From an uncultured cyanobacterium (GTDB taxonomy: Bacteria > Cyanobacteriota > Cyanobacteriia > Leptolyngbyales > Leptolyngbyaceae), in assembly GCA_963766075.1 (NCBI GenBank), contig CAVYAN010000048.1, forward strand, positions 32,001 through 96,000: a stretch of DNA of 64,000 nt. The letters run 5' to 3'. Numbering within the stretch: position 1 is the stretch's first letter; each line of letters opens with the position of its first letter. The position numbers and the translations under genes are program-made. Positions 32,671 through 61,519 of the stretch are shown here, in pieces. The notes beneath the pieces are model-generated. The model was not told where the DNA came from. It saw only the letters and a program-made list of their open reading frames with translations, and ran no database searches.

Positions 32671-32685
32671 GACTTTGCAAGCCAC

Positions 32686-32960: not shown

Positions 32961-33199
32961 TGGGTGCCCTAACACTGGAGAGGATCGACAGGATCGATCT
33001 GTCTGTACTCTGCAATCCATGCAACAAAGCGCGATGCGGTTACCCTACGGAATAGGGTAGTTTCGTCGTAGTTTTTGCCGTTGATCGTGACATACTGTAG
33101 TTAAAAAGGAGTAGCTATGTACTTGCGACCAGAGCCATTCCTCTCCGGCAGGCAAGCCGATCTACCGTTGTAAAAAATGTAAAAAATGAGGAAGGGAAG

Positions 33200-44404: not shown

Positions 44405-44756
44405 GTTCACTAAAAAAGACTTAGCCGAAGAGGTCAAGCAGATAAATGCAGAATTTGAGAAGGCGGGGTGTGATGCTCGCTTTGTTCTTCGTCCTGCATA
44501 CGGACGACAGTACGTCTATGTCCAGTCAGTGAAAAGTGTTGAATCTGGCTCCACTAGTCAGGGCGAGAAAATCAGCGATGGGACACCACGCCAGTGTTCT
44601 GATGTCATGTGGCCGAAATATCTTCAGCTCTTGCGTCACCATTACAAAGAGCTGTACGACAAAACTTATGCGGAGCTGGTGGTATACAAAAATCGGTGTG
44701 GGGAAATCGAAGGAGAGCTAGCACAGTTAAGGCAAAAGCAAGGTGAGAAATCATGA
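44397..44756 (+). CDS. Hypothetical protein, triplicated family copy 3
   Basis: Start MLRFTKKDL; DNA-level similarity to copy 2. Confidence 0.7.
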   Translation: MLRFTKKDLAEEVKQINAEFEKAGCDARFVLRPAYGRQYVYVQSVKSVESGSTSQGEKISDGTPRQCSDVMWPKYLQLLRHHYKELYDKTYAELVVYKNRCGEIEGELAQLRQKQGEKS

Positions 44757-45697
44757 TAAATCTGAGCGAAGCTGCGAGCGAGGCATTACGATGTGCCCGC
44801 ATCTCCCCCTACTCCAAAGGAGGATGGCAACTAATCGTAGACAACCCACTGTCCAAGAAGGACTACGCCGCCCTAAAGCGCGTCATTAGCGAACTGAGAG
44901 GCACATGGAATCGGAAGGCTCAAGCGAGCCTCTTCACCTACGATCCAACGGTGGCGATCGCTAATTACCTAAATACCGGCTACATCCCGCCAAAGAACCC
45001 GCATCATTTGTTCATCACGCAGCCAGACGAGATAGGCATCATGCTTGACGACATGATTGTCGGCCTGCGGGAGTTCAAACGGATGCTGGAGCCCAATGCA
45101 GGCACAGGGGCGATCGCAGACGCGCTGCGGCTACGGTGCCCAGATGCGGAAATCGACTGTGCGGAAATCGATGCCGAGCTTAGAGCTGCCTTGGCCGAAC
45201 GGTTTAACATCATTGGGGATGATTTCCTGAAGGTGACCCCAACAGGGGATTATGACTTGGTTGTCATGAATCCGCCGTTCCATGGCGTGACCTACCAGAA
45301 GCATGTTCGCCATGCTTGGAAATTTTTACGGGAAGCAGGGGAGCTGTTGTCTATCGTCCCTTCCGCCTTTTTGTTTGACGACAAGTTCAGAAACTTTGTC
45401 TTGCAGTGGGGATATGCCGAGTCCATCGGTTCTCCGTTTGAGGGAACTGACGTGAAGTGTCACATCATCCACATGACGAAGTGTGAGCCTCGGACAGGAG
45501 CAGGAGTTGTCGATGCGTGGGTTCGATTCCTTGATAACTCCTACGAGTTTCACCAAGCCTTGATAGGAGCCCACCCGTCTCGGCTGCAAGCGTTGGTCGA
45601 GGAACACATGCGCCGTCTGGCAGAATCTGAGATGGGTACCTTCTACAACGAAGATACGATCTCGGGTCTGATTAAACATTGGAAAGGAGATGAGTAG
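44753..45697 (+). CDS. Amino (N6-adenine-type) DNA methyltransferase
   Basis: MLEPNAGTGAIA (motif I), CAEID, GDDFL, VVMNPPF (motif IV). Confidence 0.85.
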   Translation: MINLSEAASEALRCARISPYSKGGWQLIVDNPLSKKDYAALKRVISELRGTWNRKAQASLFTYDPTVAIANYLNTGYIPPKNPHHLFITQPDEIGIMLDDMIVGLREFKRMLEPNAGTGAIADALRLRCPDAEIDCAEIDAELRAALAERFNIIGDDFLKVTPTGDYDLVVMNPPFHGVTYQKHVRHAWKFLREAGELLSIVPSAFLFDDKFRNFVLQWGYAESIGSPFEGTDVKCHIIHMTKCEPRTGAGVVDAWVRFLDNSYEFHQALIGAHPSRLQALVEEHMRRLAESEMGTFYNEDTISGLIKHWKGDE

Positions 45698-45699
45698 AG

Positions 45700-46284
45700 A
45701 TGACCACCATTACAGAACAGACCTACCGCGATCGCCGCCGACAGGTTTTGGATTGGATAAAAGCCAATCCCCAGCATTGGAACCAAGTCGATTGGCACTG
45801 CCAGACTAGCCATTGTGTCGCTGGCGTGGCTGAAATGTTTTCCTTGAACCTCGATCCCATGAGTCCGTCTGACTGCGAAACAGTCATTTACGACATGCTC
45901 AAGTCCGGTCTAAAGATTCCAACGCCTTTGCGGGCACGGGAATGGATGGGCCTGTCTGAGGCTCAAGCAGACACCCTTTTCGATGCTGACAACAGCCTCG
46001 GCTATATCGAGAAATTGTTCGGCTGCATCGATCCAATTCCAGACAGTTTTGAAAACCTCCCATCCTACTTGTTAGAGTTTATTGCCGCCTATCCCCGCTT
46101 GACGGAGGATCAGCTTGATCGGCTTGTAAAACATGAGGACTGGCAAGTGCGGGAGATCGCCGCCGCGCATCCTAATCTGACGGCCTCTAACATCGATCGG
46201 CTAATAGCCGATGAGGATTCAGATGTGCGGCTTACCGTTAGAAGGCATCCCCTCTTTAGCGGAGGCGTATGCAGCCCAACCTAA
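45700..46284 (+). CDS. Hypothetical protein with C-terminal LRV-like repeats
   Basis: WNQ-x2-W-x-C-x-TSHCVAG N-terminus; AAHPNLT repeat. Confidence 0.6.
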   Translation: MTTITEQTYRDRRRQVLDWIKANPQHWNQVDWHCQTSHCVAGVAEMFSLNLDPMSPSDCETVIYDMLKSGLKIPTPLRAREWMGLSEAQADTLFDADNSLGYIEKLFGCIDPIPDSFENLPSYLLEFIAAYPRLTEDQLDRLVKHEDWQVREIAAAHPNLTASNIDRLIADEDSDVRLTVRRHPLFSGGVCSPT

Positions 46285-47246
46285 AAGACTACGATCGCAT
46301 CCTGGTTGCGTTCAGTGGCGGCAAAGATTCAATCGCCAGCTACTTACACCTACTCGACTGCGGAGTCGATCCCAAGAAAATTGAATTGCATCACCATCTA
46401 GTGGATGGGCGCGAAGGGTCAACTTTATTCGACTGGCCTTGCACTGAAAGCTACTGCCGCGAAGTAGCCAAAATATATGGATTGCCCATTTATTTCAGTT
46501 GGCTTGAGGGCGGCCTAGAGCGGGAGATGTGCAGGGACAATCAGCCCAAGGCTCGAACCTGGTTTGAAACGCCCAATGGGCTTAAATCAACGGGTGGCAA
46601 AGGGAAGCCGGGAACCCGTCGCAAGTTCCCAGCTAAAGTACGTCAGCTCAAAGAGCGCTGGTGTAGCGCCTACGCCAAAATCGACGTAATGTCGGCAGCG
46701 ATCGCGGGACAATCCCGCTTCAACCACACATGGACGCTGGTTGTCACTGGCGAGCGAGCCGAGGAAAGCCCAGGGCGGGCCAAGTATGCGGAGTTTGAGG
46801 AACACCGTTCAGACCGTCGCTCGGGCAACCTGCGCCGCCACGTTGACCACTGGCGTCCGGTTCACAAGTGGGGTCGAAATAGGGTGTGGGAGCGCATGGC
46901 CGTTGAGGGTATCGTGGCGCATCCAGCCTATCACTTGGGGTTTGGCAGGCTGTCTTGCCAGCGGTGCATTTTTGGTTCGCCAAACCAGTGGGCCACAAAT
47001 TTTCACATCTCACCCGCCGAGACGCAGCGCATGGCGAACTATGAGGATGATTTTCAGTTCACATTGGACAGAAAGTTTTCCCTGCCAGAGCTTGCCGCGA
47101 AGGGTACTGTCTATTCAGCGATCGCCCAAAACGAGGGAGCGCTTAGAGCCGCCCTGCGGAGGGAGTACGTGGATAGAATCCTCGTGTCTCCCGATGAATG
47201 GCAGATGCCTGCGGGAGCGTTCGGGGAAAACAATGGTCCAATCTAA
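46269..47246 (+). CDS. PAPS reductase-family (PP-loop) protein
   Basis: VAFSGGKDS, RWCS-x2-AKI, VTGERAEES-x2-R, HPAY-x2-GFGRLSC-x2-CI. Confidence 0.88.
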   Translation: MQPNLKDYDRILVAFSGGKDSIASYLHLLDCGVDPKKIELHHHLVDGREGSTLFDWPCTESYCREVAKIYGLPIYFSWLEGGLEREMCRDNQPKARTWFETPNGLKSTGGKGKPGTRRKFPAKVRQLKERWCSAYAKIDVMSAAIAGQSRFNHTWTLVVTGERAEESPGRAKYAEFEEHRSDRRSGNLRRHVDHWRPVHKWGRNRVWERMAVEGIVAHPAYHLGFGRLSCQRCIFGSPNQWATNFHISPAETQRMANYEDDFQFTLDRKFSLPELAAKGTVYSAIAQNEGALRAALRREYVDRILVSPDEWQMPAGAFGENNGPI

Positions 47247-48501: not shown

Positions 48502-48865
48502 ATGATTAGCGAAGCCTTTCAATACAAAAGCCTTGGCCATGTCAAAGTGGTCGAAAATGTAAAAAATGACCGCACGGGAAATCCGATCGTCCTAGTTTTT
48601 GTGGGACAAACAGAGGATTGTTTTTATCAGGAAGTTGTTGAGGGGGGGTGTTATCCGAGCGGGCGTAGAGGTTTACGGAACCTTTTACGCTTCCTACGAG
48701 CCGAGCGAGGGGAGGCGAAGCTGGGTTACGGAACATCGCTCCATGGACAGCGCCCTAGCCGCCCTGGAGGAAACCCTGGAGCTTATAAGGAGGCTAAAGA
48801 GCAGTAGCCCCTTTGGCCCGCCGCCTCTTCGGCCATGGCTCGCGCCTCAGTCTTTGGGAATTTAA
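48502..48865 (+). pseudogene. Gene frameshifted at a G7 tract; paralog of 53965..54300
   Basis: The N-half (frame of 48502) and C-half (frame of 48599) each align by eye to the intact 111-aa protein; the switch is at G7 48642-48648. Confidence 0.8.
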
Positions 48866-48882: not shown

Positions 48883-49125
48883 ATGATGAACTTTAGTGTT
48901 TTGTCAAGCGGTTTGGCCGCTCCCGTCAGGAAAAGTCTACCAGGAAGTCCAGAGGACGCCAAAGAACGGCGATTGATGGCCATCCTGGCGATGCAAAAAA
49001 CTGAGCGTAGGAAGCTGGGTTGTAGTTGTCCCCTTTTCCTGGCCAACGGTCGCTCCGAGAACCCCAGGATCGACATTGGCGATGATCGAGACTGCGAGTA
49101 CTGCCACCCTATCAGGAGTTTCTGA
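48883..49125 (+). CDS. Small Cys-containing protein coupled to cas8e
   Basis: RBS AAGGAGG; CSC...CEYC; its TGA overlaps the cas8e ATG. Confidence 0.55.
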   Translation: MMNFSVLSSGLAAPVRKSLPGSPEDAKERRLMAILAMQKTERRKLGCSCPLFLANGRSENPRIDIGDDRDCEYCHPIRSF

Positions 49126-49943
49126 TGAATTTACTAACCGATCCGTGGGTTCCGGTCCTGGAGCAAAACAATCGCCCTGGCGAGGCATCCTTGCTCCGAC
49201 TGCTGACCGATGGCAGCATTTTGGATATAACTGGCCAGCCGATGACCAGGCTGGCCGTCCTGCGGCTGCTCATGGCCATGAAAGCATGGCGCGATCGCGG
49301 TGGTGATGACTTCCAGGAACAATCCTTCAGCCTGAGTACGTTCTTGCAAACTGCGTTGCCCGCAGAATGCAAGGGGCTACGCCCTGAGCTGATTATCCAA
49401 ATGTCCGATAAAAACGGCGTGGCATGGTCCCCGACGCCGCGCAAGCCATCACCACCGGAGATTTTCGCTCAGGCTGTCGTCACGGCGTATTTCTGCGATC
49501 GCGGCGGACTGAAGGCCCGAGTCCCCGGCTTATCCATTTCGGGCCAAACACCGTTTCATGTAGGCACCCAAGTCCGGATGGTGTCTGGGGAAACGGTCTT
49601 GGAGCGCCTCGACAATAATCCTGTTGATTGGGAGCCCGACGACTACCAGCCCCCGTGGGTGGGCGGCGTGAAATTTCCGGAAGGTAGCAAGCCGCGCCAT
49701 GACTTAGAGCTGCTGCTCTGGCCATGGCGCAGAGTCTGCATTACGGACAATGGCGTTGTTGTCGCACCAGGGGCGGTCATGTCCACCGAGGTGAAAGACC
49801 CTTGGGTGCTGGGGAAAGCGCTGGTGCGTCATTATCGTGACAAACCTGAGGAGGGATTTGAAATCACAAATCTGGCCTTGCAGCAGGCGTCACCCTTGGC
49901 CTGCTGGATCTCTCGGCCCTGCAAACAAAGTGTCGTATTCTGA
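49125..49943 (+). CDS. cas8e: Type I-E large subunit Cas8e/Cse1, shortened (272 aa)
   Basis: N-terminal NLLTDPWVPV is characteristic of Cse1; RLL, W-x-WRRV and DPW motifs; heads the cas6/7/5 operon. Confidence 0.75.
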   Translation: MNLLTDPWVPVLEQNNRPGEASLLRLLTDGSILDITGQPMTRLAVLRLLMAMKAWRDRGGDDFQEQSFSLSTFLQTALPAECKGLRPELIIQMSDKNGVAWSPTPRKPSPPEIFAQAVVTAYFCDRGGLKARVPGLSISGQTPFHVGTQVRMVSGETVLERLDNNPVDWEPDDYQPPWVGGVKFPEGSKPRHDLELLLWPWRRVCITDNGVVVAPGAVMSTEVKDPWVLGKALVRHYRDKPEEGFEITNLALQQASPLACWISRPCKQSVVF

Positions 49944-49948
49944 AAACT

Positions 49949-50497
49949 ATGGAAATGGAAGCAGTTTTAACCAAAATCAGAGGAAGCCTAGGGCACAAAG
50001 CCGTCATGGCCGGTTTTGAACATTCCGAGTCCCCCACAGCCAGGGCGGATTGGAACATTTTGTTCCGGCATGACGGCGAAAATACGTTGATTCAGTCAAC
50101 CGTTGCGCCGACTTACCGCCGTCCATTTGAACAAAAACCCCTCCCTCTCGATCCGATCGCGGGCGAGTCCTACTTTTTCAGGGTGGCTATTAACGCTATC
50201 TCCATTGAAAAGACCGAATCAGGACGGTCCAAGGAGGTGCGTTGTGACCCTGAAATTTGGCTGCAATTCCAGCAGGCAAAGCGCGGCTTTGCTATAGAAA
50301 AACTCCTTTCTGCGGTTAGCGCTCCGATTGTCGAAACATCTGGAGGCCGCAGGTTTTTTGTCAACCGTTTTCACATAGAAGGCGTTTTGATTGCTGAAAA
50401 TGCCCAACTTTTGGGCAAAACGCTTCTCGAAGGACTGGGAAAATCCAGATCCTACGGATGCGGATTGCTCTCCATCTTGCCCATTAATCAACCATAG
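49949..50497 (+). CDS. cas6e: Type I-E crRNA endoribonuclease Cas6e/Cse3
   Basis: N-terminal His (GHKAVM), ILFR, LIQS-x3-P, FRV-x2-N, G-loop GLGKSRSYGCGLL. Confidence 0.9.
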   Translation: MEMEAVLTKIRGSLGHKAVMAGFEHSESPTARADWNILFRHDGENTLIQSTVAPTYRRPFEQKPLPLDPIAGESYFFRVAINAISIEKTESGRSKEVRCDPEIWLQFQQAKRGFAIEKLLSAVSAPIVETSGGRRFFVNRFHIEGVLIAENAQLLGKTLLEGLGKSRSYGCGLLSILPINQP

Positions 50498-50505
50498 GAG
50501 TTTTC

Positions 50506-51810
50506 ATGTTCGTTGCCGTTCACGCAATTCAATCCCTGCCTCCCTCCAACCCCAACCGAGGGAAAGATGGCGAGCCCAAGCACTCCCCGCTCGGTGGGGT
50601 GGTCAGAGCGTGCCTGTCCTCCCAGTCCCAGAAACATGCGGCGCGGCAGTGGTACCACGCTGCTTTTGAATCGGATCCTTCTGGATTTGCCTACCGCTCC
50701 AGAGAGTGGCATGGGCAGCTTGCAGCCCAACTTGGATGGGCTCCCGATCACCAAAAAGACAACATAGCGAGGTTAATCCTCGCGCTGCTCAACAGCAGTC
50801 CGGCGAATTTATTCGCTAATGCGATCTCCATGCAGAACCTAATTTTTATGGGCCTTGCAGAAATGCAGGCGATCGCCATTATGTCCCAGTCATGCGCAGA
50901 AGCGCTCGGATTTCTGTCCGACGATTTTGAGGCTTACAAAGTCTGGGCTGCAAACCAAAAAACGATCGTAGAAGAGCCTGAAGAACCCGTAGAAGAGCCT
51001 GAAGAACCCGTAGAAGATGCAGGGAAAAAGAAGGCTAAATCTAAAAAAGCGGAATTTGGGCGGCACCCCACTCCTGCCAAGTTGAGGCCCATAATTCAAT
51101 GCATCAGCAGTGCCATGGGCAGCACTGTCCCTGGCGATATAGCCCTGTTTGGGCGGATGATGGCGTCCTCCGGATTTGGCAGCACGGACGGCACGGTAGA
51201 AGTCGCCGCCGCGATCGGGGTGGGAGCCCTTGGTCGGTCTAGGTCGGATAAGGGGTGGGTGCCCGGTCAAGTTGACTTCTTCTCAGCAGCAGACGATCTC
51301 GCTCTTCCCAACACGTCTGGGGCGGCGATGCTGGGAGAAACACTGTTCGCAGCCCCAACGCTGTACCGATACGCCAACGTGAACTGCCATGAGGCTGCAA
51401 ACCTCATAGGTAATCGAGAGGCTGCTGCCGAAGCGATCAGGCGGTTCGTCAACGGGTTTCTGCGCGCCCTCCCCACGGGGCACTCTCGGCAGTTTGCCCA
51501 TGGGGTTCTGCCGGAGTTTGTCCTGCTGGAAGTTTTGAAGACGGCCCCTTACGGCTACAGCCAAGCATTCCTATCACCTATCAATGGCCCTGACACTTCG
51601 GTGCCTACCGAGTTCGGAGGACTGTCGGTCAGCCAGCAGGCGGTGAACGCGCTCATGCGCCACAGGATGAACTCTATCGAGTTGTTTGGCGGGGCTCCTG
51701 AGAGCTTCGCGATAACGGCTCTATCAACCCATTGGGGGACGGAAGAGGTTCTACCCCTAGACAAAGCGATCGCCTCCGTCCTGGCTCACCCTGGCGTGCT
51801 GGAGAAATAA
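50506..51810 (+). CDS. cas7e: Type I-E backbone subunit Cas7e/Cse4
   Basis: HAIQSLPPSNPNR-x3-G-x-PK, GG-x2-RA-x2-SSQS-x-K, DIALFGRM, DFFSAADD, LYRYANVN, LPTG. Confidence 0.93.
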   Translation: MFVAVHAIQSLPPSNPNRGKDGEPKHSPLGGVVRACLSSQSQKHAARQWYHAAFESDPSGFAYRSREWHGQLAAQLGWAPDHQKDNIARLILALLNSSPANLFANAISMQNLIFMGLAEMQAIAIMSQSCAEALGFLSDDFEAYKVWAANQKTIVEEPEEPVEEPEEPVEDAGKKKAKSKKAEFGRHPTPAKLRPIIQCISSAMGSTVPGDIALFGRMMASSGFGSTDGTVEVAAAIGVGALGRSRSDKGWVPGQVDFFSAADDLALPNTSGAAMLGETLFAAPTLYRYANVNCHEAANLIGNREAAAEAIRRFVNGFLRALPTGHSRQFAHGVLPEFVLLEVLKTAPYGYSQAFLSPINGPDTSVPTEFGGLSVSQQAVNALMRHRMNSIELFGGAPESFAITALSTHWGTEEVLPLDKAIASVLAHPGVLEK

Positions 51811-51811
51811 T

Positions 51812-52258
51812 ATGCCCTTCACAATGACCCTTTCCGGGCCAATGGGAGGCTTCGGAGATACACCCAGATTGGTGCATCGCTTTGTTCAGGAGGCTCCCCC
51901 GCGATCGGCCATCATCGGCCTAATTGCCAACGCCTATGGCCTGAGCCGCGACGATGATTTTGGGTTCCTAGATTCCCTGAGATTCAGAATCATTGAACAA
52001 AGCTCGGGTGAGGCTGTAGTTGATTTTCAGACGGTGCGGAATGCCGTCACCGTTGATGGTAAGCCGGGGCGGAATGCCATCACGTATCGGCACTATTTGC
52101 CAGACTACAAGCTGGTGTTGGAAGTTGATGGCCCGGAGGAATTGCTCAAGCAAGTGTTCCTCAATCTGAAATATCCCCACCGACCGCTTTACATTGGACG
52201 GCGCTGTAATGTTTTAGATCGGCCTGTCGTTGCTGGGGATTTTCCAGGGATAGGATAA
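51812..52258 (+). CDS. cas5e: Type I-E Cas5e/CasD, shortened (148 aa)
   Basis: LSGPM-x2-FG, P-x-RSAIIGLIANAYG-x2-R, DFQTV, TYRHYL-x-D, P-x3-LYIGRR. Confidence 0.9.
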   Translation: MPFTMTLSGPMGGFGDTPRLVHRFVQEAPPRSAIIGLIANAYGLSRDDDFGFLDSLRFRIIEQSSGEAVVDFQTVRNAVTVDGKPGRNAITYRHYLPDYKLVLEVDGPEELLKQVFLNLKYPHRPLYIGRRCNVLDRPVVAGDFPGIG

Positions 52259-52261
52259 GTT

Positions 52262-53458
52262 CTCCAAAAGTTGGAGGTTGGTCTGCATAGCATTGACTCA
52301 GCACGCTGACTCAGCACGCTCCACTCCAATCTTTGGAGGTCGATCTGGACAAGAGAGGCACTAAATCAAGCTATTGGGAAGGCGGCAGATTACTGCACTC
52401 CAATCTTTGGAGGTCGATCTGCGCTACAGCTTATCCCTCGGCCACGCCGCCCATCTGCCCCGCCCTGCGGGGGTTGCTCTAGAATCTTGTTTCAAAATGT
52501 TTTGTGCCCCATCTACTGGGGGTTAATCGTACAAAAATTTTGATTAGATTGGGCACCGTTGCCCTATCTAGCGGGGGTTACTCGTAAAAGCTCTACGAGG
52601 TTCAAGATGCTTTGTGCCCGCTTTGCGGGGTTCATCATGCAAAGATCGCGACCTGCCCTGAACTGTGCATTGCCCCAGCCTGGGGGGTTTTTAGGGCAAC
52701 GATTTGATCGCCCCACCCCGTGGGGGTTTGTCGCAAGTAAACCGTGGACCGTGCGTTGCCCCAAACTGTGGGGGTTTGTCGCAAGCTTACCTTAGCGCTC
52801 AGGGTTGCCCAATACCCCACCTTGTGGGGGTCCGTCCATCAGCGCGATGGAAGCCTGGGAGCGGTAAATAATTGCCCCGCACAGTGGGGGTTTATTGTAC
52901 AAAGTCTCAGAGGTTCAAAATGTTTTACGCCCGCTCTGCGGGGTTTTTCAAGTAGTTCATGCGTGCTTTCACCCCACACCATGGGGGTTTATCGATGAAC
53001 TCTAGTCATGCGTGCTTCCGCCCCATCTAATGGGGGTTTCTCACCGAGAACTTGGGAGAAGCCATATTTCCCCACCCGTGGGGGTTTATCCACCAGTCCG
53101 AACTTTTCATCCGCGATCGCCACTCCACGCCGTGGAGGTTTGTCACTCTCTGCGCTTACTGCGATAGTGAACATTTCCCCACCTGCGGGGGTCGATCTTC
53201 TCCAGAGGGCAGCATCGCAAATAGGCTGGATTCACACCCTCTCTGAGGGGTTTTTCGTTCAACTTAACCAGCTCGAAATGGTATTGCTTGCTCCATGGCG
53301 TGGAGGTTTGTCAACAAAGTTGAGTGCGTCCCCACTTGTGGGGGTTCTTCTCTGGCCTTGGCCGTCTTTTTTCAGCCCCATGTTATGGGGGTTCTTCTCT
53401 GGTCAATAATCGACCCTCTCCACGCCGATCTGCACAGCCCCACCTATGGGGGTTAATC
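52262..53458 (+). CRISPR. Degenerate CRISPR-like array, block 1 (23 hairpin repeats)
   Basis: Units of a 5-7-bp stem (for example CCCCAC-N3-GTGGGG) plus a GTnnnTC tail start at 52262, 52324, 52398, 52458, 52507, 52562, 52617, 52673, 52711, 52759, 52815, 52875, 52930, 52972, 53021, 53070, 53123, 53177, 53237, 53291, 53330, 53376 and 53438. The array begins 3 nt after the cas5e stop. Confidence 0.85.
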
Positions 53459-53475
53459 CTTATCAGGAGAACTAC

Positions 53476-53748
53476 ATGGATAAAAAGCTGCTTATTTGTG
53501 TTTGTGAAAAATTCATCGACCTTGACACGGTTAGAGCACTGTTACGGGGTGATAGCGTTCGAGATTCTTCCCTTGATCTCCTGTTTTTGCAGGAAGATTG
53601 CTTAGGCGGTAAATTTCGATTGCGAGGCGCAACAGAAGATTCAAAAACTTTTGTAGACTGCGAGTTCTCGTATCTTGAAACGAATGAAGAAGTTTATCTT
53701 GAAATAACCGCACTGAGAACCAGTCCGATCCTCGACTCCCTGCCCTGA
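53476..53748 (+). CDS. Hypothetical protein (90 aa) embedded between array repeats
   Basis: RBS AGGAG then ATG 53476 (MDKKLLIC...). Confidence 0.7.
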   Translation: MDKKLLICVCEKFIDLDTVRALLRGDSVRDSSLDLLFLQEDCLGGKFRLRGATEDSKTFVDCEFSYLETNEEVYLEITALRTSPILDSLP

Positions 53749-53756
53749 GAGCACAG

Positions 53757-53948
53757 CCCCACCTGTGGGGGTTTATCCATGATAGGGCTGCACATTCCTG
53801 CGGATACTTGCCCGCAATCGCGGGGTCAGTCCCGTTCCACAGGGAGGCACAATTTTTGTAGCCTGGTCACCCCGCCTTGCGGGGGTCGATCGCTTCCAGG
53901 CTAGTAGATACACTCTCTCTGAGTCTCCACTCCGTGGAGGTTTTATTC
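53757..53948 (+). CRISPR. Degenerate array, block 2 (4 repeats)
   Basis: Hairpin units at 53757, 53811, 53870 and 53925. Confidence 0.8.
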
Positions 53949-53964
53949 AAAACATAGGAGTCTT

Positions 53965-54300
53965 ATGCTTTACCAAGATTACGACTACGAAGCTGTTGGC
54001 GGCGTAAAAATCGCCAAAAACGCAGCAAACATACAAACGGGAAACAAAATAATGCTGGCCTTCCTAGGGCCAGATGAAGATTGCTACTACATTGAAGCCC
54101 TCCCCGATGAGGCTGGGATAATCCGCGCTGGCCGGGAAGCGGACGGCGATTACTACGCAAGCTTCGAGCCAGTGGTTGGGGAGAGCTGCTGTGTGAGGGA
54201 GCACTCCTGCATTGATGATGCCCTATCTGAACTGGAGGCTATTTTGCTCACCTTGGATCCGCCGCCGCAATGGCGATCGCCGCAAACGCTGGCGCTGTAA
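53965..54300 (+). CDS. Hypothetical protein (intact paralog of 48502..48865)
   Basis: RBS ATAGGAG; shared TGN-x-I-x-L-x-F-x-G-x2-EDC, IRAG-x-E, YAS-x-EP, EH, PQ-x-L motifs. Confidence 0.75.
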   Translation: MLYQDYDYEAVGGVKIAKNAANIQTGNKIMLAFLGPDEDCYYIEALPDEAGIIRAGREADGDYYASFEPVVGESCCVREHSCIDDALSELEAILLTLDPPPQWRSPQTLAL

Positions 54301-54322
54301 CTCGTGAAAATCCTAATGACCT

Positions 54323-54730
54323 ATGAAAATCCTGAACCTAGAAACGGGCGCAACAGCAACTATTGACACCGAAAACATCCCTGAAGAAAATCGGTTAATT
54401 CCCGAGAATCCGTTAGACCTTTTGGCTTTGACTGCTTTTTGCATTCAGAGCAACTGTAATGGGGTGGTTTGGACGACGAACAGGCAAGAAGATGGCAGCA
54501 TAAGCGTCATGCTTGACACCTTGGTTTTTGGATATGACGGCTTCGCCAAAACTACCGTAGGAATTCAACCTGCGGTCTTCGACCCGATGACTTTTATAGA
54601 TCAGGAATCAGTTCATCTCACGTTCTGGGTTTCGTTAACCCACTGCAAACTTAAGCCAGAGGCGTTCTGGCTCACAAGCCTGCGCGGATTTCAGCAGACT
54701 AACATTGTGGGTTATCCCATCGTTTTTTAG
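54323..54730 (+). CDS. Hypothetical protein
   Basis: 135-aa ORF ending 12 nt before block 3. Confidence 0.65.
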   Translation: MKILNLETGATATIDTENIPEENRLIPENPLDLLALTAFCIQSNCNGVVWTTNRQEDGSISVMLDTLVFGYDGFAKTTVGIQPAVFDPMTFIDQESVHLTFWVSLTHCKLKPEAFWLTSLRGFQQTNIVGYPIVF

Positions 54731-54742
54731 CCCCATTTCCCG

Positions 54743-54991
54743 CCCCACTCAGTGGGGGTTTATCTCTAATGTTGACTGGAAATAAAAAGTGCTTCGCCCC
54801 ACTCAGTGGGGGTTTGTCGGTAATCATCAGCGCCATAGTTCTTGCGCATCAAGCTCCACATCGTGGAGGTGCCTCGGCAAAAGCGCTAGCATGTCGGGCT
54901 GCCAGGTTGAATGCTCCACTCTGTGGAGGTGCTTCGGCAAAAGCACTGGTCGGTTGGCGATAGCTAGCGCTCCACGCCGTGGAGGTCTTTC
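54743..54991 (+). CRISPR. Degenerate array, block 3 (5 repeats)
   Basis: Hairpin units at 54743, 54797, 54854, 54914 and 54970. Confidence 0.82.
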
Positions 54992-55037
54992 GACAACAGA
55001 AATTCAGACCGATACTTTATTCTTGGAGACTGAAATT

Positions 55038-55586
55038 ATGAAGCAACTAACATCCGTAACGCTCCCTTACGAGCAGTTTGCAGAGATCGCAAATTATGAA
55101 GTGGAGGGCTGCGTCGAGGCTGCCATTAGTCTGGGCTGTGCCGACTTCGCCAAGCGCGACATCCCAGACGGATCGGGCGCGTTCCCTGTCCACCTGAGCC
55201 TGAAAACACCAGAGGGTCGTTTTTTGGGATCGGGTGCGTATTGCGGATTCGTCCACGGCTTCGATCAGGACATTTTAGAACGGCTTTGGCAGGCTGCTGG
55301 GGTCACCCTGGATGAGGATACTCTGTACCAGTCCTGCTTTGATGTCAACATAGGCACTCATGAAGATAATCACGGCGCTGTCTGCGAGGACTGCCTGAGA
55401 GCGGGAGGAGGGGTCTATATCGAAGGATCGGAAGATACTCCGTGGGAGTCACTGAGCGAGCTTGATCGCCTCGGGCTTACTTTTCGCCGTTTGCTGCCAG
55501 AGAGCGATCGCGCAGTCTGTTGGTCATGTAGGCAAATGATTGACGAGTCAATCGCGTCTGCTGCGGAAAATTGTGCCGCTGAGTGA
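55038..55586 (+). CDS. Hypothetical protein with two CxxC motifs
   Basis: RBS GGAG, start MKQLTSV (the track's 54789 start runs through the array). Confidence 0.65.
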   Translation: MKQLTSVTLPYEQFAEIANYEVEGCVEAAISLGCADFAKRDIPDGSGAFPVHLSLKTPEGRFLGSGAYCGFVHGFDQDILERLWQAAGVTLDEDTLYQSCFDVNIGTHEDNHGAVCEDCLRAGGGVYIEGSEDTPWESLSELDRLGLTFRRLLPESDRAVCWSCRQMIDESIASAAENCAAE

Positions 55587-55679
55587 GCCTTGACCCCAAC
55601 CCAGTCGTGACAGTTCTGGAGTTAAAGAATCCCGGCAACGGGACTGGCAAAATTCATCAAAGCCAGTAAGGAGAACAAC

Positions 55680-55964
55680 GTGAACATCAAGTCTTGCGCG
55701 ATCGCCATCAATAGCGGAGAGGACGCCCACGCATCCATTCTGGCCATGTGTCAGCAGCTAGACATAGCCAATCTGCCTGAGCCTGAAGACAAAATGCGCC
55801 AACTGGCGTACACGGAAAGCGGACTAAGGGTCGCTTTGATGTTGAATCACCAATGGATTCAGGCTCGGGCGGAAAAACTGATTCAGCCTTGCTTCAATCG
55901 GATTGCTACTGAGGAGTTTGGCGTGGGTATGCGTCAAACTCGCGCAATGGTCGCACATGATTAA
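55680..55964 (+). CDS. Hypothetical protein
   Basis: RBS AAGGAG, GTG start. Confidence 0.6.
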   Translation: MNIKSCAIAINSGEDAHASILAMCQQLDIANLPEPEDKMRQLAYTESGLRVALMLNHQWIQARAEKLIQPCFNRIATEEFGVGMRQTRAMVAHD

Positions 55965-55987
55965 CCAGTGAACATAGGAGTTGAAAA

Positions 55988-57052
55988 GTGAAAATCAATC
56001 GCCCAGTTGGAGTACTACTGCCAATTCATGAAACGTATTACGGGGATATAAACCCTGGCGATCTAAACAGTTTCTTGGCTTGTGCCGGAGAAGCGTTGCG
56101 AACGTTCGGGTTCTCTCGGATCGAAACCTTAAACCCTGACACAGACCGAGAGCGGGAGCTGTGGGGCGTTGGCGAAATCTTGGTCCAGTCGGATGAGATT
56201 ACGAGCTGGGATGACGGCAAAGATGTGGGGATAACGGTTGATTGGCTTGACCTAATCGACGCCGATTCAGACGAAATATTGAAGGTTCTAGAATCCACAT
56301 GGATGAAGGAACCGGCGATCGTGGCGATGAACTATCTCGAAGAAGATGGCTACAAAGACCGTGGAAACTCCGAGTTTGGAGTAGTTCGCTCCTACAGGCA
56401 TCACAGTCAGGAATTTGTCCCAGGAATTCCCCTTTCTAGGTTTTTGAGCGAGGGATGGGTAAAAGAGCAGCCTAGCAGCAAGGCAAGCATCAGTGTAGCC
56501 CCTGGCGGGGGGATTCAAGTCCCGCGAGAACTTGACTTTGTTCGATGCTGGGAGCTTTTTGAACGCCAGTCGCTAGACAACCCTAGGTGTTTTGAGTATC
56601 GGCAGGTATGCCTCACTGAGGATTCTCGCTACAGAAAATGGGTAGAGCAGGGCTATCCTGCCTTTTCGGTAAACTTTTCCGACTCTCAGCGCCGTTTTGT
56701 CAACGAAGCAAAACTATCGGAAAGAGCGGCATTTGTTCACTCGATAGTAAGCCGCCCATCCGAATTCCAAAGGCTGGTATCGGAGTTTGGGCATACCCTT
56801 GCTGTCGGCCACTCAGTCTGGATCTGCACGGATGCAGAAGGCCGCGAGGGATTTTATATGTGGCGAACCGAAGGGGGCTGGCACGGGGCTCAATTCGGAG
56901 TGCAAGAGCTGAAAAGGCTTGGAGTGAGCGATCGCTTTGAAAAGCTGAGGGAAACTTTAAGTATCGAAACGAAAGGATTTCCTGTAGCCGGAGAGGGCGT
57001 TGGCAGATACGCCGATGTGGAATTCCTCAAATCTACGGGATGGTTTGAGTAG
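55988..57052 (+). CDS. Hypothetical protein (354 aa)
   Basis: RBS ATAGGAG, GTG start; ends 13 nt before block 4. Confidence 0.7.
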   Translation: MKINRPVGVLLPIHETYYGDINPGDLNSFLACAGEALRTFGFSRIETLNPDTDRERELWGVGEILVQSDEITSWDDGKDVGITVDWLDLIDADSDEILKVLESTWMKEPAIVAMNYLEEDGYKDRGNSEFGVVRSYRHHSQEFVPGIPLSRFLSEGWVKEQPSSKASISVAPGGGIQVPRELDFVRCWELFERQSLDNPRCFEYRQVCLTEDSRYRKWVEQGYPAFSVNFSDSQRRFVNEAKLSERAAFVHSIVSRPSEFQRLVSEFGHTLAVGHSVWICTDAEGREGFYMWRTEGGWHGAQFGVQELKRLGVSDRFEKLRETLSIETKGFPVAGEGVGRYADVEFLKSTGWFE

Positions 57053-57065
57053 TTGATCCTCAGCA

Positions 57066-57441
57066 CCCCACCTTGTGGGGGTTTGTCAAAGTTTATAAAC
57101 GGGCTGCGGTATTTATTGGCGACTTAAAGCCTTTGCCCCACGCCGTGGGGGTTTATCAACGGTCTGCGGCAGCCTTGTGACGTAAAGCCTTCGCCCTACA
57201 CTGTGTAGGGGTTTATCTTCGATCCAACTCTATTGGCTTAACGGCTCTCTTTGCCCCACGGTGTGGGGGTTTATCTTTGCTCCAACTCTACCAGCTTAAC
57301 GGCTCTCTTTGCCCCACGGTGTGGGGGTTTATCAAACGGTTCTATAGCCAAATCAACCCTCACCCCGCTCAGTGGGGGTCTATCTTTACGGCAGCAAACC
57401 CCCACCGGGCTTACATCACCCCACACTGTGGGGGTGCGATC
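57066..57441 (+). CRISPR. Degenerate array, block 4 (7 repeats)
   Basis: Hairpin units at 57066, 57136, 57194, 57254, 57312, 57363 and 57419; the most homogeneous block (CCCCACnnnGTGGGGGTTTATC). Confidence 0.88.
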
Positions 57442-57515: not shown

Positions 57516-57835
57516 GCCGCGATCGCCACTGGTCGCGGCTTTTTTTATGGAGAAACCCCAAAATGCAAACCAAAATCACCAAATCTAAAGCCGCCGAAAT
57601 CGCCCAGAACCTGATAGAGGAAGGCGAGGAAAACACAGGAGTCTGTCTAGCCTGCGGAGAAGTCCATGAAGGGATTGAGCCCGATGCCCGCGAGTATAAA
57701 TGTGAAGCCTGCGGTCAACATAAAGTTTACGGATCAGAAGAAATTCTTCTAATGTTCGGACCTGCCAACTTCTAAAAACCACTGAATGCAGACTGCCGCG
57801 ATCGCCACTGATCGCGGCTTTTTTATGGAGAAAAC
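57516..57835 (+). repeat. Duplicated ~40-bp hairpin-polyT-RBS module
   Basis: GCCGCGATCGCCACTGRTCGCGGC-T6/7-ATGGAGAAA at 57516 and 57795. Confidence 0.8.
57563..57775 (+). CDS. Small zinc-finger protein
   Basis: G-x-CLACG...IEPDAR-x-Y-x-CEACG-x3-VYG. Confidence 0.7.
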   Translation: MQTKITKSKAAEIAQNLIEEGEENTGVCLACGEVHEGIEPDAREYKCEACGQHKVYGSEEILLMFGPANF

Positions 57836-58084: not shown

Positions 58085-58448
58085 TGAGGTCTTGGACATT
58101 GAATGGTTGGACAAAGTGGGTGACCCGCTCACAGTTGCCACAACCATTTGTGGAATTGTGAACGGTTCGATTTGTGCGAAAGAAATCCTAGAAAAGTCAG
58201 AGGGTGTATTCCCAAACCCAATCGACAAGCTATCTATACCTGAACAGAAGTTGTTTGCTATCAATGATGTCATCCAAGGTTTTGGGACGGAAGCCGCTTG
58301 GCTGGACGACAGCTCAGACTATCCCAGCGCCGAGTATATCGACGTTGGAGATCCCTATGTAGCAACCATTCTGTATGACTACCAGACTGACACCTTTCAG
58401 GTTACCTGCTTAGCAGATTGGCTTAACCCACAGGAGAAAGCAGCATGA
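58074..58448 (+). CDS. Acidic hypothetical protein
   Basis: GTEA...YIDVGDPYVATILYD; overlapping chain. Confidence 0.6.
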   Translation: MLIDEVLDIEWLDKVGDPLTVATTICGIVNGSICAKEILEKSEGVFPNPIDKLSIPEQKLFAINDVIQGFGTEAAWLDDSSDYPSAEYIDVGDPYVATILYDYQTDTFQVTCLADWLNPQEKAA

Positions 58449-61400
58449 TTAGCGTTGCCAGAGTCCGCGAGATTGAACAAGTACTAGAAGCAAAAGCGGA
58501 TGAGTACAAAGGAATAAGTAGGATTACATTCCCAGAGATCTTAAAGTTTGTGCTCCTTAAAGAGGCAAATATTCTCGATCAGATCGATTTCGATATTGTT
58601 GAGGAATTCGTACTTGAAACATTCAACGACTTTCCTGAAGAGTTCATCGCCAAACTCAAGGAGAAATACCCCGAAATCCTCGGACTGGAAAAGATTCTGG
58701 AAGAAGCCGATCCCAAAGACGTTCGCGCAGAGATCGAAGCCAATTCAACCCTAAACGACGAACTGGGATTAGTCCCTCAGATGGCTCGAATGCCAGAGGA
58801 AGAACTGTTCAAGCTGCTGATCGATTACGGCTTGCTTCCCAGCTTCAACCTCTACGACCTCCAATCCAATCGCACCGACAATAAAAACCTTGAAACCCCC
58901 ACAGAGCAATGCTTAACACCGCCCGCGACCACTGCAAAAACCGTCGCCGGCGACGGTGCAAAACCGCCAAACCCTCATCCAGAAAGCACCCTGGAAACAG
59001 TGCCCATGACAAACGAAGTCGTCAATTACCGTTACCGCGTAGAGGCTGCCCTAACAGCGATCTCTGCTGTCGTCAGAAACCAGGGCCAAAACTACACAGA
59101 AGCGATCGCCCAGTTTGGTGGATGGGGCTCGCTGAGCCGATTGTTCACCGAGCGGCCTGACATGCCCGAATGGGAGAAACGGGCTTGCGGCACCCTGAAG
59201 GGACTCCTAAGCCCACAGGAATACGCTTCTGCACGGAATCTGACCCTTAACAGCTTCTACACCAGTCCCGAGGTTATCAGGGCGATCTGGGCGTTCGTTT
59301 TGTCCACTGGATGGGAAGGTGGCGAAGTGCTTGATCCAGGATGCGGCACCAGGCGGTTTTGGCAGTACGCCCCAGAAGCGGCACGCCAGATCGCCACTGG
59401 CTACACAGGCGTTGAAAAGGACTACACAACCCACCTTATGGGGCTCGCCTTAACCCCTCTGGACGACCAAGGAAAGAGTCTCAATGATTTTTCCGAGCAT
59501 GGCGACTTCCTCACATGGGCCACCGATCTCCAGTATCACCTGGTGATCGGCAACTTCCCTTTTGAAGATGGCGTAACGGCAGGCGTCCCGGACCTTGGCT
59601 TTGGCCTCAAGGTGGCTTTGCATGGCCGCTTCCTGCTGCGTGCACTTAGTCATCTGCGCCCTGGCGGCTTGCTGGCCGTCATCACCAGTCCGGGCCTGAT
59701 GGACGGCAGTTCAAAAGCCTACCAAGGGCTCCGAGCCCGTGTAGAAGCTATGGCGGTGTTCCTGGGGGCTGTGCGGCTCCCAGAACAGACCCACGCCAGT
59801 TCTGGTACGGAGTGCACCAGCGACCTAATCATCTTGCGCAAGCGATCGCCCGCTGACAACGCGGATAACGAATTCACCGAGGCTAGTGTGCCGTGGCAAA
59901 AAGTTTACACATCCCCCAAACTTAATGCCTACTGGAGCGCAAACCCCACCCACCACCTTGGTCAATTTGTGCCCAACCGCACCCGTGGCGGGCAGGGGGC
60001 GGGCGCAAGATGGACCGGCAGCTATGCCGAACTGATTTCCGCACTCAACCAAGCACTTAAATCAATCCAGGAGAACTATATGTCCAGAATCAGAAAGACC
60101 CGTGACGACAGCCCAAAGACAGGCTGGCAGCACGTTGAGGTGACCTACAATGCCGAGCAGGATGGGGTTGAAATTCGCTTCTCAGATGCGATTCCCAAGA
60201 TGATCAGCGGATTGCTGGGCTGGGCCGGATTCAAATTCCATCGCGACAAGTTCTGGTGGGTGAAGGTGTCACCAGAGGTTCAGGGTTGGTTGCAGAACTC
60301 ATTTGAGGAAATCCTCCTGAACGCTGGGTACGAAGATGTCCCAGAAGACGAGCGATCGCTGACCGCCAAGGGGTTTGCCTCCTGCGAGGAATATTTTGTA
60401 ATTCCCTCACTTCAGCCGCCAGTCCAAGCGGCTGACCTCCCTCCCTCCGCAGAAGAGCCGCAGAAAGCTGGCGGAATAGAACCTTGGGCCTTCAGCTCAG
60501 AGGGGGCGAAGCTACTGCGACAAACCTTTGAGAAACGCGAGTGTGTCGAGCCAGTAGTAGAAATCCCAGCACACCCTACCCCTGGATCGACCCTGCGTCA
60601 GGTTGAGCCGTATTTCGTCAGATCGCAGTTTTTTGGCGCTTACAAGCGCTCAAAGATTGAAGAGTATGAGCGGGATCTGGTAGTAGCACTGAACAACGAT
60701 CCGGCATCCATAAGGCACGAGTTGCTCAGAATCACCTACGAACTTTTGCTGCCGACTGAAGAAGAATATCTAGCGTTCACTCAGGCGCTAACGCAAACCC
60801 GCGACTGGATGTTTCACATGGGTGGATCATCCTCCCTGCACGAGACTGATTATCCAAACTTGAGCCCTGAAGAGGAACAGGAATGGCGGAAATACCGATT
60901 TGGCGATAACTGCCTTATGGTCCGCGCACCGCAAGACATTCCGCGCCACATGGATTTTGTGGTCAACCCCGAGGGGAACACTTACGCCAAATACGTGTAC
61001 ACCAGTCCCATTCCGGTCGAAGCTCCTACAAAGGAAACCTACCAATCGATTCTCCATGGCCCGACCGAGGAAGAATGGATAGCGAAACAAACCGCTCAGG
61101 CTCAAGCCCAGGAGCCCGAGCCTGAAACACCGCCCGTCACTGGATTCGACCTTGACGACTTTTTCTCAGACATCATGGGCCTGGTCGCTGACGCAACTCC
61201 CCCTGAGCCCTGGATGAAAGATGCCGTGCAAGCACAGCTTGAGGAATTGGCGAAGCGCCCGCGCATTCCCTCGTTTCGAGCAACCCTGACAACAAAATGG
61301 ATACCTTTGCTGAACTTCCTGAACCTGGGAAGTTTGTTGGGAATGCTCACGATGGGACAAAAGCTTGCTGAACTAAAGCGACAATCCCCCGATATTCCTG

Positions 61401-61519
61401 GCCTCGATCCCTTGTCCAAAGAGATGCTTGAGATGCTAGCGCGGCTCAACATCTTCCCCGAACAGGGAGGGGCGATCTCAAAACCCGCAGGACAGGGAGG
61501 GGCGATCGCAAAAAAGTAA
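58445..61519 (+). CDS. Multidomain protein containing a DarB-like N6-adenine methyltransferase domain
   Basis: FGGWG, L-x2-LLS-x2-EY-x-SAR-x3-LNSFYTSP, VLDPGCGT, GVEKD, VIGNFPF, LRPGG, FLGAVRLP, DLIILRKR. Confidence 0.8.
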   Translation: MISVARVREIEQVLEAKADEYKGISRITFPEILKFVLLKEANILDQIDFDIVEEFVLETFNDFPEEFIAKLKEKYPEILGLEKILEEADPKDVRAEIEANSTLNDELGLVPQMARMPEEELFKLLIDYGLLPSFNLYDLQSNRTDNKNLETPTEQCLTPPATTAKTVAGDGAKPPNPHPESTLETVPMTNEVVNYRYRVEAALTAISAVVRNQGQNYTEAIAQFGGWGSLSRLFTERPDMPEWEKRACGTLKGLLSPQEYASARNLTLNSFYTSPEVIRAIWAFVLSTGWEGGEVLDPGCGTRRFWQYAPEAARQIATGYTGVEKDYTTHLMGLALTPLDDQGKSLNDFSEHGDFLTWATDLQYHLVIGNFPFEDGVTAGVPDLGFGLKVALHGRFLLRALSHLRPGGLLAVITSPGLMDGSSKAYQGLRARVEAMAVFLGAVRLPEQTHASSGTECTSDLIILRKRSPADNADNEFTEASVPWQKVYTSPKLNAYWSANPTHHLGQFVPNRTRGGQGAGARWTGSYAELISALNQALKSIQENYMSRIRKTRDDSPKTGWQHVEVTYNAEQDGVEIRFSDAIPKMISGLLGWAGFKFHRDKFWWVKVSPEVQGWLQNSFEEILLNAGYEDVPEDERSLTAKGFASCEEYFVIPSLQPPVQAADLPPSAEEPQKAGGIEPWAFSSEGAKLLRQTFEKRECVEPVVEIPAHPTPGSTLRQVEPYFVRSQFFGAYKRSKIEEYERDLVVALNNDPASIRHELLRITYELLLPTEEEYLAFTQALTQTRDWMFHMGGSSSLHETDYPNLSPEEEQEWRKYRFGDNCLMVRAPQDIPRHMDFVVNPEGNTYAKYVYTSPIPVEAPTKETYQSILHGPTEEEWIAKQTAQAQAQEPEPETPPVTGFDLDDFFSDIMGLVADATPPEPWMKDAVQAQLEELAKRPRIPSFRATLTTKWIPLLNFLNLGSLLGMLTMGQKLAELKRQSPDIPGLDPLSKEMLEMLARLNIFPEQGGAISKPAGQGGAIAKK

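Follow-up and report, generated by a model that had tools for sequence, protein, structure and literature searches.

What can a type I-E CRISPR (short palindromic repeats, clustered and regularly interspaced) effector do on a virus-like contig when neither a nuclease nor adaptation genes are found with it? The question is raised by a locus in a 64,000-nucleotide (nt) stretch of DNA, referred to here as the window, from the metagenome-assembled genome (MAG) of an uncultured cyanobacterium of the family Leptolyngbyaceae. The window (G000:C48:32001-96000) lies on contig C48 (116,265 bp) of a MAG of 5.05 Mb that comprises 126 contigs and is 84.9% complete. Four cas genes run there straight into an array of hairpins that alternates with further genes. 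The feature is real, rare and conserved, and we infer its function from sequence: at what we would call an even chance, the locus encodes a functional, binding-only mini-Cascade, a reduced I-E effector of the cyanobacterial type on a large phage or phage-plasmid.

Four cas genes and the partners not found with them

Four adjacent, tightly packed and intact open reading frames (ORFs) on the + strand, spanning 49125-52258, match I-E families in Pfam and NCBIfam, in the order cas8e-cas6e-cas7e-cas5e that an earlier, sequence-only reading of this DNA had assigned to them. The cas8e-like gene (49125-49943, 272 residues) matches CRISPR_Cse1 (PF09481, E 1.9e-12) through residues 2-52 only, onto positions 1-53 of the 450 in the profile, and scores 29.7 bits with the full-length family TIGR02547, against a cut-off of 70.05. 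It aligns with the N-terminal ~370 residues of the 514-residue Cse1 of a canonical cyanobacterial locus (G043) and ends where the last ~150 begin, which we take to be the C-terminal helical bundle of canonical Cse1; judged by this alignment, the window Cas8 is an N-terminal domain only, without that bundle. Cas6e (49949-50497, 182 residues; PF08798, E 6e-19) carries a His at position 16, presumably catalytic, which is invariant together with a G-rich C-terminal loop across 8 aligned Cas6e proteins, and it gives weak matches to Cse3/CasE among PDB sequences. Cas7e (50506-51810, 434 residues; PF09344, E 1.8e-54) has, compared with canonical cyanobacterial Cas7e, ~30-60 extra residues around positions 130-195 that are helical and of low complexity; a 21-nt tandem repeat at 50967-51017, detected by Tandem Repeats Finder, encodes an acidic repeat inside this insertion. 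Its AlphaFold2 model (pLDDT 74.3) contains a 38-residue helix at 117-154 and disorder at 156-180, and the top Foldseek matches of the model are I-E Cas7 chains (8yb6_F, 5u07_G and 5h9e_I). The last gene encodes a short form of Cas5e (51812-52258, 148 residues; TIGR01868, E 3.8e-19, aligned over positions 3-162 of a 230-position profile). Cas7e, Cas5e and Cas6e can therefore be placed in their I-E families by PF09344, TIGR01868 and PF08798, and Cas7 by its fold as well, with Cas7e and Cas6e scoring below the NCBIfam equivalog cut-offs (138.8 versus 178.05 bits and 38.1 versus 45.2 bits, respectively).

The canonical locus used for comparison (L110, from G043) encodes Cas3 (910 residues), Cse1 (514), Cse2 (190), Cas7 (378), Cas5 (216), Cas6 (209), Cas1 and Cas2, and has 91 copies of the repeat GTTGTCCCCACTCATGTGGGGGTGAACC beside cas3-cse1-cse2-cas7-cas5-cas6-cas1-cas2. 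The two systems have homologous Cas7e, Cas5e and Cas6e, and in the N-terminal part of Cse1 they are homologous as well. Unlike the canonical locus, the window has no Cas3, Cse2, Cas1 or Cas2, its Cas8 is devoid of the C-terminal helical domain, its Cas5 is shorter (148 versus 216 residues) and its Cas7 longer (434 versus 378).

Profile searches of the MAG with cas3_core (TIGR01587) returned 2 weak helicase matches on other contigs, both under the cut-off, and there were zero matches in the MAG to Cas3_HD (PF18019), to Cse2/Cas11 (PF09485, whose positive control matched in Thermus only), to Cas1 (PF01867), to I-E Cas2 (PF09707) and to TniQ (PF06527). Nor was a second I-E system seen elsewhere in the MAG. 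Since the MAG is 84.9% complete, we describe Cas3, Cse2, Cas1, Cas2 and TniQ as not found, rather than absent. The 83 scanned ORFs of the window include no transposase family and no DinG-like helicase; a CRISPR-associated Tn7-like transposon was considered and rejected, there being neither TniQ in the MAG nor a transposase family among these ORFs. The profile searches of window and MAG agree with the sequence-only reading, which had recognised no cas3, cse2/cas11, cas1, cas2 or Tn7-like genes, and no cognate module for cas3, cas1, cas2 or cse2 turned up in the 84.9%-complete MAG. On the other hand, the suggestion made there that the element might borrow a host Cas3 is unlikely, because the MAG has no I-E Cas3 and the window Cas8 has no C-terminal domain. 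With Cse2 not found and this domain missing, the entire "belly" of Cascade would be gone. In the I-F2 structure other subunits compensate with extra domains, and by analogy the extra helices of Cas7 may substitute here for the small subunit.

The hairpin array and its setting

A relaxed motif scan, plus one copy placed by eye (52563-52577), gave 39 hairpins, all of them on the + strand like the cas genes, with a 5-6-bp stem and a spacing of 38-74 nt. They fall into four blocks, the first hairpin beginning 3 nt past the cas5 stop: block 1 (52262-53451) holds 23 copies at 38-74 nt, block 2 (53757-53939) 4 copies, three of which a covariance model lists at E<=1, block 3 (54743-54984) 5 copies, and block 4 (57066-57433) 7 copies at 51-70 nt, with two units 88-90% alike. 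Annotated as features, the four blocks extend to 53459, 53947, 54992 and 57441, and the array as a whole covers 52262-57441. This is the count and layout (about 39 hairpins in four blocks directly after cas5) that had been described from the sequence alone, and its account of a heterogeneous, gene-interleaved array holds as well, loops and spacing being variable and six ORFs lying between the blocks. A strict motif (a 5-7-bp C-rich stem, a 3-7-nt loop, then GTnnnTC) occurs 29 times within 52458-57384 on the + strand, and elsewhere in the 64-kb window twice on the + and once on the - strand. A slightly looser motif occurs 33 times in the array region against 27 times elsewhere in the MAG of 5.05 Mb (both strands), and 16 of these 27 matches belong to an unrelated dispersed host repeat. 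That repeat, ~150 nt long with nested hairpins, is found at 16 MAG sites (for example C22:3494, C40:10292 and C113:38727) and contains CCCG[CT]AGGGCGGGGTGGGTC; it looks like a host repeat of the miniature inverted-repeat transposable element type that matches the loose motif by accident.

In fixed register, the bases that follow the stem in the 39 copies are G (38 copies) and T (38), then variable positions, then T at position 6 (36) and C at position 7 (34). Purine- and T-rich bases precede the stem and, together with the G,T...T,C tail, make up a degenerate repeat of ~28 nt. In a MAFFT alignment of the 39 copies, pairing within a 6-bp helix amounts to 86.8% of cells, versus 79.0% after shuffling (none of 500 shuffles equalled it), double-sided, compensatory changes occupy 21 cells versus 6.5 in shuffles (again 0/500 as high), and sliding the partner column by 1-3 positions lowers pairing to 37-66%. 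Since the double changes are confined to three of the six stem pairs and the copies are related through duplication, we regard this covariation as support and not as proof. As far as the sequence can tell, the covarying 6-bp stem and the fixed G,T...T,C correspond to the stem-loop and 8-nt 5' handle of I-E repeats; near-identity among repeats is not seen, mean column identity being 59% across the 39 copies, with spacing as variable as given above. A covariance model built from the 39 copies recovers 38 at E<0.02, by construction, and its best window match outside the array has an E of 0.057. Tandem Repeats Finder reports in the array just one 2.3-copy, 58-nt repeat, and Rfam, searched at E<=1, gives no relevant family, its one match (E 0.031) being a chance likeness to viral stem-loops of an unrelated family. 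The canonical repeat and the window hairpins share the stem CCCCAC/GTGGGG and a GT..-type handle; unlike the canonical array, with its fixed period, the window repeats agree in stem and handle only, are spaced at 38-74 nt and have genes among them. The array appears to keep just what Cas6e and Cas5 need, namely the stem and four handle bases, G,T in positions 1-2 and T,C in positions 6-7.

With a repeat of ~28 nt, the implied spacers are mostly 26-32 nt long, with outliers from ~10 to 46 nt. Some units are paralogous: 57199-57256 and 57257-57314 are 88% identical, and three units have GGTTCAAAATGTTTT in common. Several units being paralogous, the array would in the source genome grow by duplication and not by acquisition.

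The hairpin blocks begin 3-13 nt past the preceding stop codon, and three of them end 25, 25 and 53 nt ahead of the next ATG, with a Shine-Dalgarno-like motif at each. The interleaved ORFs, all on the + strand, are one of ~90 residues at 53477-53748 (with an alternative ATG at 53446, inside the last block 1 hairpin), two of 111 and 135 residues within 53965-54730, and three of 182, 94 and 354 residues within 55038-57052. None of these six, nor of four ORFs upstream of the cas genes, matches a Pfam or PHROG family, and the 354-residue ORF has no usable match in a protein atlas. By eye, the ORF at 48502-48807, upstream of cas8, and that at 53965-54300, inside the array, are alike (for example GHVKVVENVKNDRTGNPIVLVFVGQTEDCFY versus GGVKIAKNAANIQTGNKIMLAFLGPDEDCYY). 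An intrinsic-terminator-like hairpin on the + strand (57516-57545, a 10-bp stem with a T run) is the likely end of the transcription unit, as predicted from its sequence. The single strand throughout, the blocks abutting stops and starts, and the one strong terminator at the end point to one transcript cut by Cas6e.

The phage-borne setting claimed in the sequence-only reading is borne out by the gene content of C48, which is phage-like in Pfam and PHROG searches: a major head protein, a head protease, a portal, a large terminase, a tail fibre and a Mu-F-like protein, and further ParA/ParB, FtsK and an integrase, as well as a PAPS-reductase-like protein, a Csx3 homologue and several DNA methyltransferases. 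In composition C48 is close to the MAG (G+C 0.533 versus 0.535; HIP1 density 1.40 versus 1.38 per kb), and it is a phage or phage-plasmid adapted to the source cyanobacterium or one very like it. Methyltransferase genes (44753-45697) and a PAPS-reductase-like gene (46269-47246) lie upstream of the cas module, and in the flanking region there are two large DarB-like anti-restriction methyltransferase/helicase proteins, one at 58445-61519 of the window and one at C48:100376-103570 (L098:6376-9570), which match phrog_10089 at E 2e-47 and 1.2e-172. With methyltransferase and DarB-like genes around it, the cas module is located within a counter-defence island. Distant from it, at 38206-38508 on the + strand, a 100-residue ORF matches Cas_csx3 (PF09620, E 1e-14); Csx3 proteins are ring nucleases, and a homologue on a phage could be an anti-type-III-CRISPR gene. 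An intergenic region at 32637-32976 holds three tandem units of ~110 nt, 69-95% alike, which might serve the element as iterons or as a regulatory repeat of another kind.

A Cas7 clade and a candidate nuclease gene in related loci

Searches with Cas7 returned one 85%-identical, full-length protein from another sample and a further 17 proteins with 37-48% identity; canonical Cas7e follows at ~27-31% over nearly the full length. The nearest Cas7 relatives, P0002-P0010, have 45-85% identity. The window Cas7 has all 44 invariant columns of a 19-member alignment of this clade. In a quick tree, 25 long Cas7 form one clade (SH-aLRT 99), placed as sister to the cyanobacterial I-E Cas7 with a weak SH-aLRT of 80 at a node where long branches meet. 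A single-protein query of genome and viral contigs gave no related loci; an alignment query gave twelve with DNA (L012-L018, L092-L095 and L112), on metagenome, virus and MAG contigs. These loci carry the short Cas8 (279-366 residues as ORFs), the long Cas7 and the short Cas5 (144-155 residues), at 28-49% identity to the window proteins (32-37% for the short Cas8 and 35-49% for Cas5), and the long forms of Cas8 and Cas5 occur in none of the twelve. Short contigs hold partial sets: L016 and L095 are without cas8 and cas6, L014 without cas8, L018 without cas8 and cas5, and L017 without a detectable cas8. Four IMG/VR records, one of them 74,186 bp long with direct terminal repeats, showed no cas3 core, Cas1 or Cse2. 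The module thus belongs to a rare, well-separated and conserved Cas7 clade found on virus-like and other contigs, and is not a one-off.

All twelve related loci have the same hairpin with a GTnnnTC-like tail (GTGAGTC or GTGGGTC) at periods of 62-76 nt, with loops that in some of these loci differ between copies, and the covariance model built from the window only recognises 37 copies (E<=0.01), spread over 8 of the loci. The arrays of L013 and L015 are regular, mostly 60-66 nt with a few short terminal units, and stand on both sides of the genes, as do those of L112 (62-63 nt); in L012 an array of eight copies, spaced at 63-64 nt and each with a different loop, separates cas7 from cas5. In the viral contigs the units measure 64-76 nt and their loops vary; closely spaced additional hairpins occur between genes, and there are more arrays on the opposite strand behind a divergent cas8. 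In relatives with regular arrays the spacers are unique, ~32-36 nt long, and differ between close relatives. Among close viral contigs (L093:13094-13763, L094:6066-6540, L092:8430-8830 and L016:3104-3615), cas-distal units are common and cas-proximal ones differ, different pairs share different spacers, and the hairpin loop beside a common spacer can differ. This pattern fits a turnover of spacers, perhaps with acquisition in trans, or else the loss of units from a pool that was once larger, and suggests that spacers turn over in viral contigs with no cas1-cas2 on the element. One of the twelve, the Thermosynechococcus MAG contig L112 (6,907 bp), is arranged as array (-), cas5 (-), cas8-cas7 (+) and array (+), with no cas6 or gene X (described below) and a C5 DNA methylase just upstream; its cas8 is the closest to that of the window, and in both loci cas8 is co-directional with cas7.

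In seven of the twelve loci (L012, L013, L015, L017 and L092-L094) a gene encoding 214-238 residues, which we call gene X, lies between divergent cas8 and cas6. It has 31 relatives at E<=0.001 among 1.84 billion representatives. In an alignment of 27 sequences E48 is invariant and D13, A16, D34, V49, K50 and Y130 nearly so, giving a D...E-V-K signature, and the sub-threshold Pfam matches are to SfsA, HSDR_N, PDDEXK_3, YhcG_C and Tox-REase-3; by sequence, gene X is a candidate PD-(D/E)xK nuclease. Its AlphaFold2 model is poor (pLDDT 42), and a comparison with PDB sequences gave nothing meaningful. Profiles built from 7 and from 27 gene X sequences found no homologue among the six-frame ORFs of the MAG, the best match (E 0.36) being on another contig. 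Because 7 of the 12 related loci have this candidate nuclease gene, the "Cascade-only" state of the window is probably a secondary loss of gene X.

An I-E variant with a PD-(D/E)xK nuclease-Cas11 fusion is described in the available part of the 2025 classification (PMC12669027), as I-E3 in the main text and as I-E4 in the supplementary table, where the motif "D..ExK" is given for I-E4; the available part of a 2023 survey (PMC10910872) first noted such a variant, in one sentence. Compared by these descriptions, the gene X-bearing relatives may be this catalogued variant, seven loci of the same clade carrying a D...E-V-K gene that recalls the motif "D..ExK". The identification is tentative: gene X shows no recognisable Cas11 part, its comparison in hhalign with a Cse2 profile (up to 104 sequences) reaching a probability of 0.15%. 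Unlike the variant, the window and the rest of the MAG have no such gene.

Binding, cutting or punctuation

The course of events that we infer begins with one long + strand transcript, which would run from at least cas8 (49125) through the terminator at 57516-57545. Cas6e would cleave it 39 times, once per hairpin at the 3' base, so that most fragments would start with an 8-nt GUnnnUCn handle and end with a hairpin; the products would be ~35 guide RNAs of mixed length plus three hairpin-flanked mRNAs with 1, 2 and 3 genes. Cas5, several Cas7 and the Cas8 reduced to its N-terminal domain would assemble on the guides into a Cascade without the belly formed by Cas11 and the Cas8 C-terminal domain. 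As no Cas3, HNH or PD-(D/E)xK partner is seen in the window, this complex would act by binding, through transcription block or antisense, rather than by cutting, which is the simplest reading of the gene set. Its likely targets would be host defence genes or rival mobile elements; RNA or single-stranded DNA targets are also kept in mind, because a complex without a belly may be unable to open double-stranded DNA. In the source genome the array would not have been written by Cas1-Cas2, and would have grown by duplication of units.

The target searches provide leads only. When 32 nt were scanned without gaps, two of the real spacers matched at 25/32; of 30 shuffle sets of 26 spacers, three had one such match and none had two, a comparison in which mononucleotide shuffles flatter the real sequence and the criteria were picked after the match had been seen. 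The sites fall within one Prok-E2 gene and one gene for an ABC-transporter ATPase, both antisense to the mRNA. The best lead is the spacer at 53833-53869, with 27/37 identity to contig C103 (25/32 over the first 32 nt), a mismatch at seed position 4 and AAG immediately 5'; AAG is an I-E protospacer-adjacent motif. The site lies inside the Prok-E2_E gene of an operon (C103:1-5488, L182) that also encodes Multi_ubiq, a JAB+ThiF protein (E1) and DUF6527, adjoined by a pair of genes, one helix-turn-helix and one Peptidase_M78 (IrrE-like). Such ubiquitin-like conjugation systems have been reported to act against phages. We give the match in the E2 gene about one chance in five of being a real target. 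When the first 24 nt were compared with every sixth base masked, at >=17/20, there were 12 real matches versus 8-13 with shuffled and 15 with reversed spacers. A 31-nt spacer, with up to 3 mismatches allowed, was found in 0 of 400 other genomes; the spacers of L015 gave nothing but repeat-to-repeat matches in phages and plasmids, plus one 29-nt match at E 0.04; two spacers of relatives found in IMG/VR just the arrays themselves; and 252 inter-hairpin pieces gave no clear protospacer in four viral genomes, C48 and five loci. The search against cyanobacterial genomes, plasmids and phages that the sequence-only reading had proposed thus yielded no convincing target.

Several observations weigh against a working, guide-loaded complex. 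With blastn-short, the 39 inter-hairpin pieces gave in the MAG at best 17-nt exact matches, the same as shuffles; the whole array had no match in the phage and plasmid collections; and block 1, against 400 genomes of the class, reached at best an E of 0.0018 per genome, which is chance level, with many of the matches on a HIP1-containing part. Units of 38-49 nt leave just ~10-21 nt of guide, which is short for a six-Cas7 Cascade, the spacings show no 6-nt periodicity, and several "spacers" are mutual paralogues, unlike acquired spacers. Finally, gene X is present in seven related loci and missing from the window.

This last point makes loss of function a live alternative. The locus could be a decaying remnant of an I-E variant that lost its PD-(D/E)xK partner and whose array is drifting and inactive, as would be consistent with gene X in 7 related loci and none in the whole MAG, with the window array being the most irregular of the clade, and with the absence of any target found. 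The four ORFs are open, however, and keep the clade-invariant residues, the 85%-identical Cas7 relative is full length, and the stems pair through compensatory changes next to fixed handle positions, which would not survive neutral drift; we therefore consider decay unlikely. Equally unlikely, in our view, is that the hairpins serve mainly as Cas6e-dependent punctuation of a polycistron, affecting mRNA ends, stability and translation, with the inter-hairpin pieces mostly by-products. Blocks that abut the stop and start codons of six interleaved, possibly anti-defence ORFs would suit this, as would irregular unit lengths, the failure to find targets, and the hairpins that relatives also have between cas genes (in L012 between gene X and cas6 and, as the 8-copy array, between cas7 and cas5; in L093 between cas6 and cas7). 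Yet punctuation would need no more than one or two hairpins at a junction and there are 23 consecutive ones after cas5, the conserved Cas7, Cas5 and Cas8 would have no role in simple RNA cutting, and relatives have regular arrays whose unique ~32-36-nt spacers differ between close relatives. Punctuation and guide functions are in any case compatible, not exclusive.

The mini-Cascade might instead be an interference system that recruits an effector we do not recognise, be it a neighbour, an interleaved protein or a host factor, since in relatives a candidate nuclease accompanies this module, and neither the six interleaved ORFs nor four upstream ones belong to a recognised family. The interleaved ORFs are nevertheless not conserved beside the module in other loci, and no nuclease motif was recognised in them with Pfam and PHROGs, which leaves this reading a small chance. 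It is highly improbable that the hairpins are unrelated to CRISPR, whether as weak terminators, as repetitive extragenic palindromic (REP)-like elements or as RNA anti-CRISPR decoys against a host I-E system. Many copies are followed by GTTT and were caught in a terminator-like scan, and phage-borne repeat mimics are described in the available part of PMC10651486; against this, the copies have a conserved G-T-n-n-n-T-C tail with no T run (GTGAGTC or GTGGGTC in relatives), the true terminators nearby have 10-bp stems followed by seven T, and the copies occur only beside cas genes. RNA anti-CRISPRs, that is solitary repeats, were examined as a separate candidate and rejected, because the element has its own cas6e, cas7e, cas5e and cas8e and the MAG has no other I-E system to poison. 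More specific than the binding-only reading, and with a slim chance of being right in all its parts taken together, is the proposal that a phage-plasmid mini-Cascade without Cas3 and Cas11 silences host anti-phage genes, the candidate being the E1/E2 operon on C103, by means of hard-wired, gene-family-like guides, which would be inherited and duplicated instead of acquired and would keep only stem and handle, while the Cas6e sites would also punctuate counter-defence mRNAs.

Among known systems, the binding-only reading finds its nearest counterparts in type IV-A (10.1101/2023.06.23.546257) and in Cascade-based CRISPR interference (CRISPRi) without Cas3 (PMC4288158), both of which, in the available parts of these sources, act by silencing. 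As described there, they resemble the window system in being nuclease-free, on mobile elements and without an adaptation module of their own, and by analogy the window system would most likely work in the same way. Unlike type IV-A, its proteins are of I-E type and not Csf, no DinG-like helicase is among the scanned ORFs, and its array is far more degenerate. The I-F2 (I-Fv) minimal Cascade, which according to the available part of PMC12956352 works without large and small subunits, is likewise a type I complex without Cas11; it differs in using Cas3 and in having Cas1-Cas2 and regular arrays, whereas the window keeps a truncated Cas8 and has neither Cas3 nor adaptation genes. In the literature searched we found no I-E module described that lacks Cas11 and Cas3, has both Cas8 and Cas5 truncated and is joined to a gene-interleaved array conserved in structure only; published data files may cover the clade.

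If the system works, it would be among the smallest type I effectors, with four proteins of ~1,040 residues altogether and no small subunit, and a natural case of a virus using CRISPR to bind and not to cut. It would also mean that a guide array can persist without acquisition machinery, keeping, of its RNA features, only those that are read by the subunits for processing and capping. CRISPR finders based on repeat identity may miss such arrays, as the lone 2.3-copy tandem repeat and the lack of a relevant Rfam family suggest. Finally, the interleaving with genes points to the possibility that a viral operon is organised by way of Cas6e sites.

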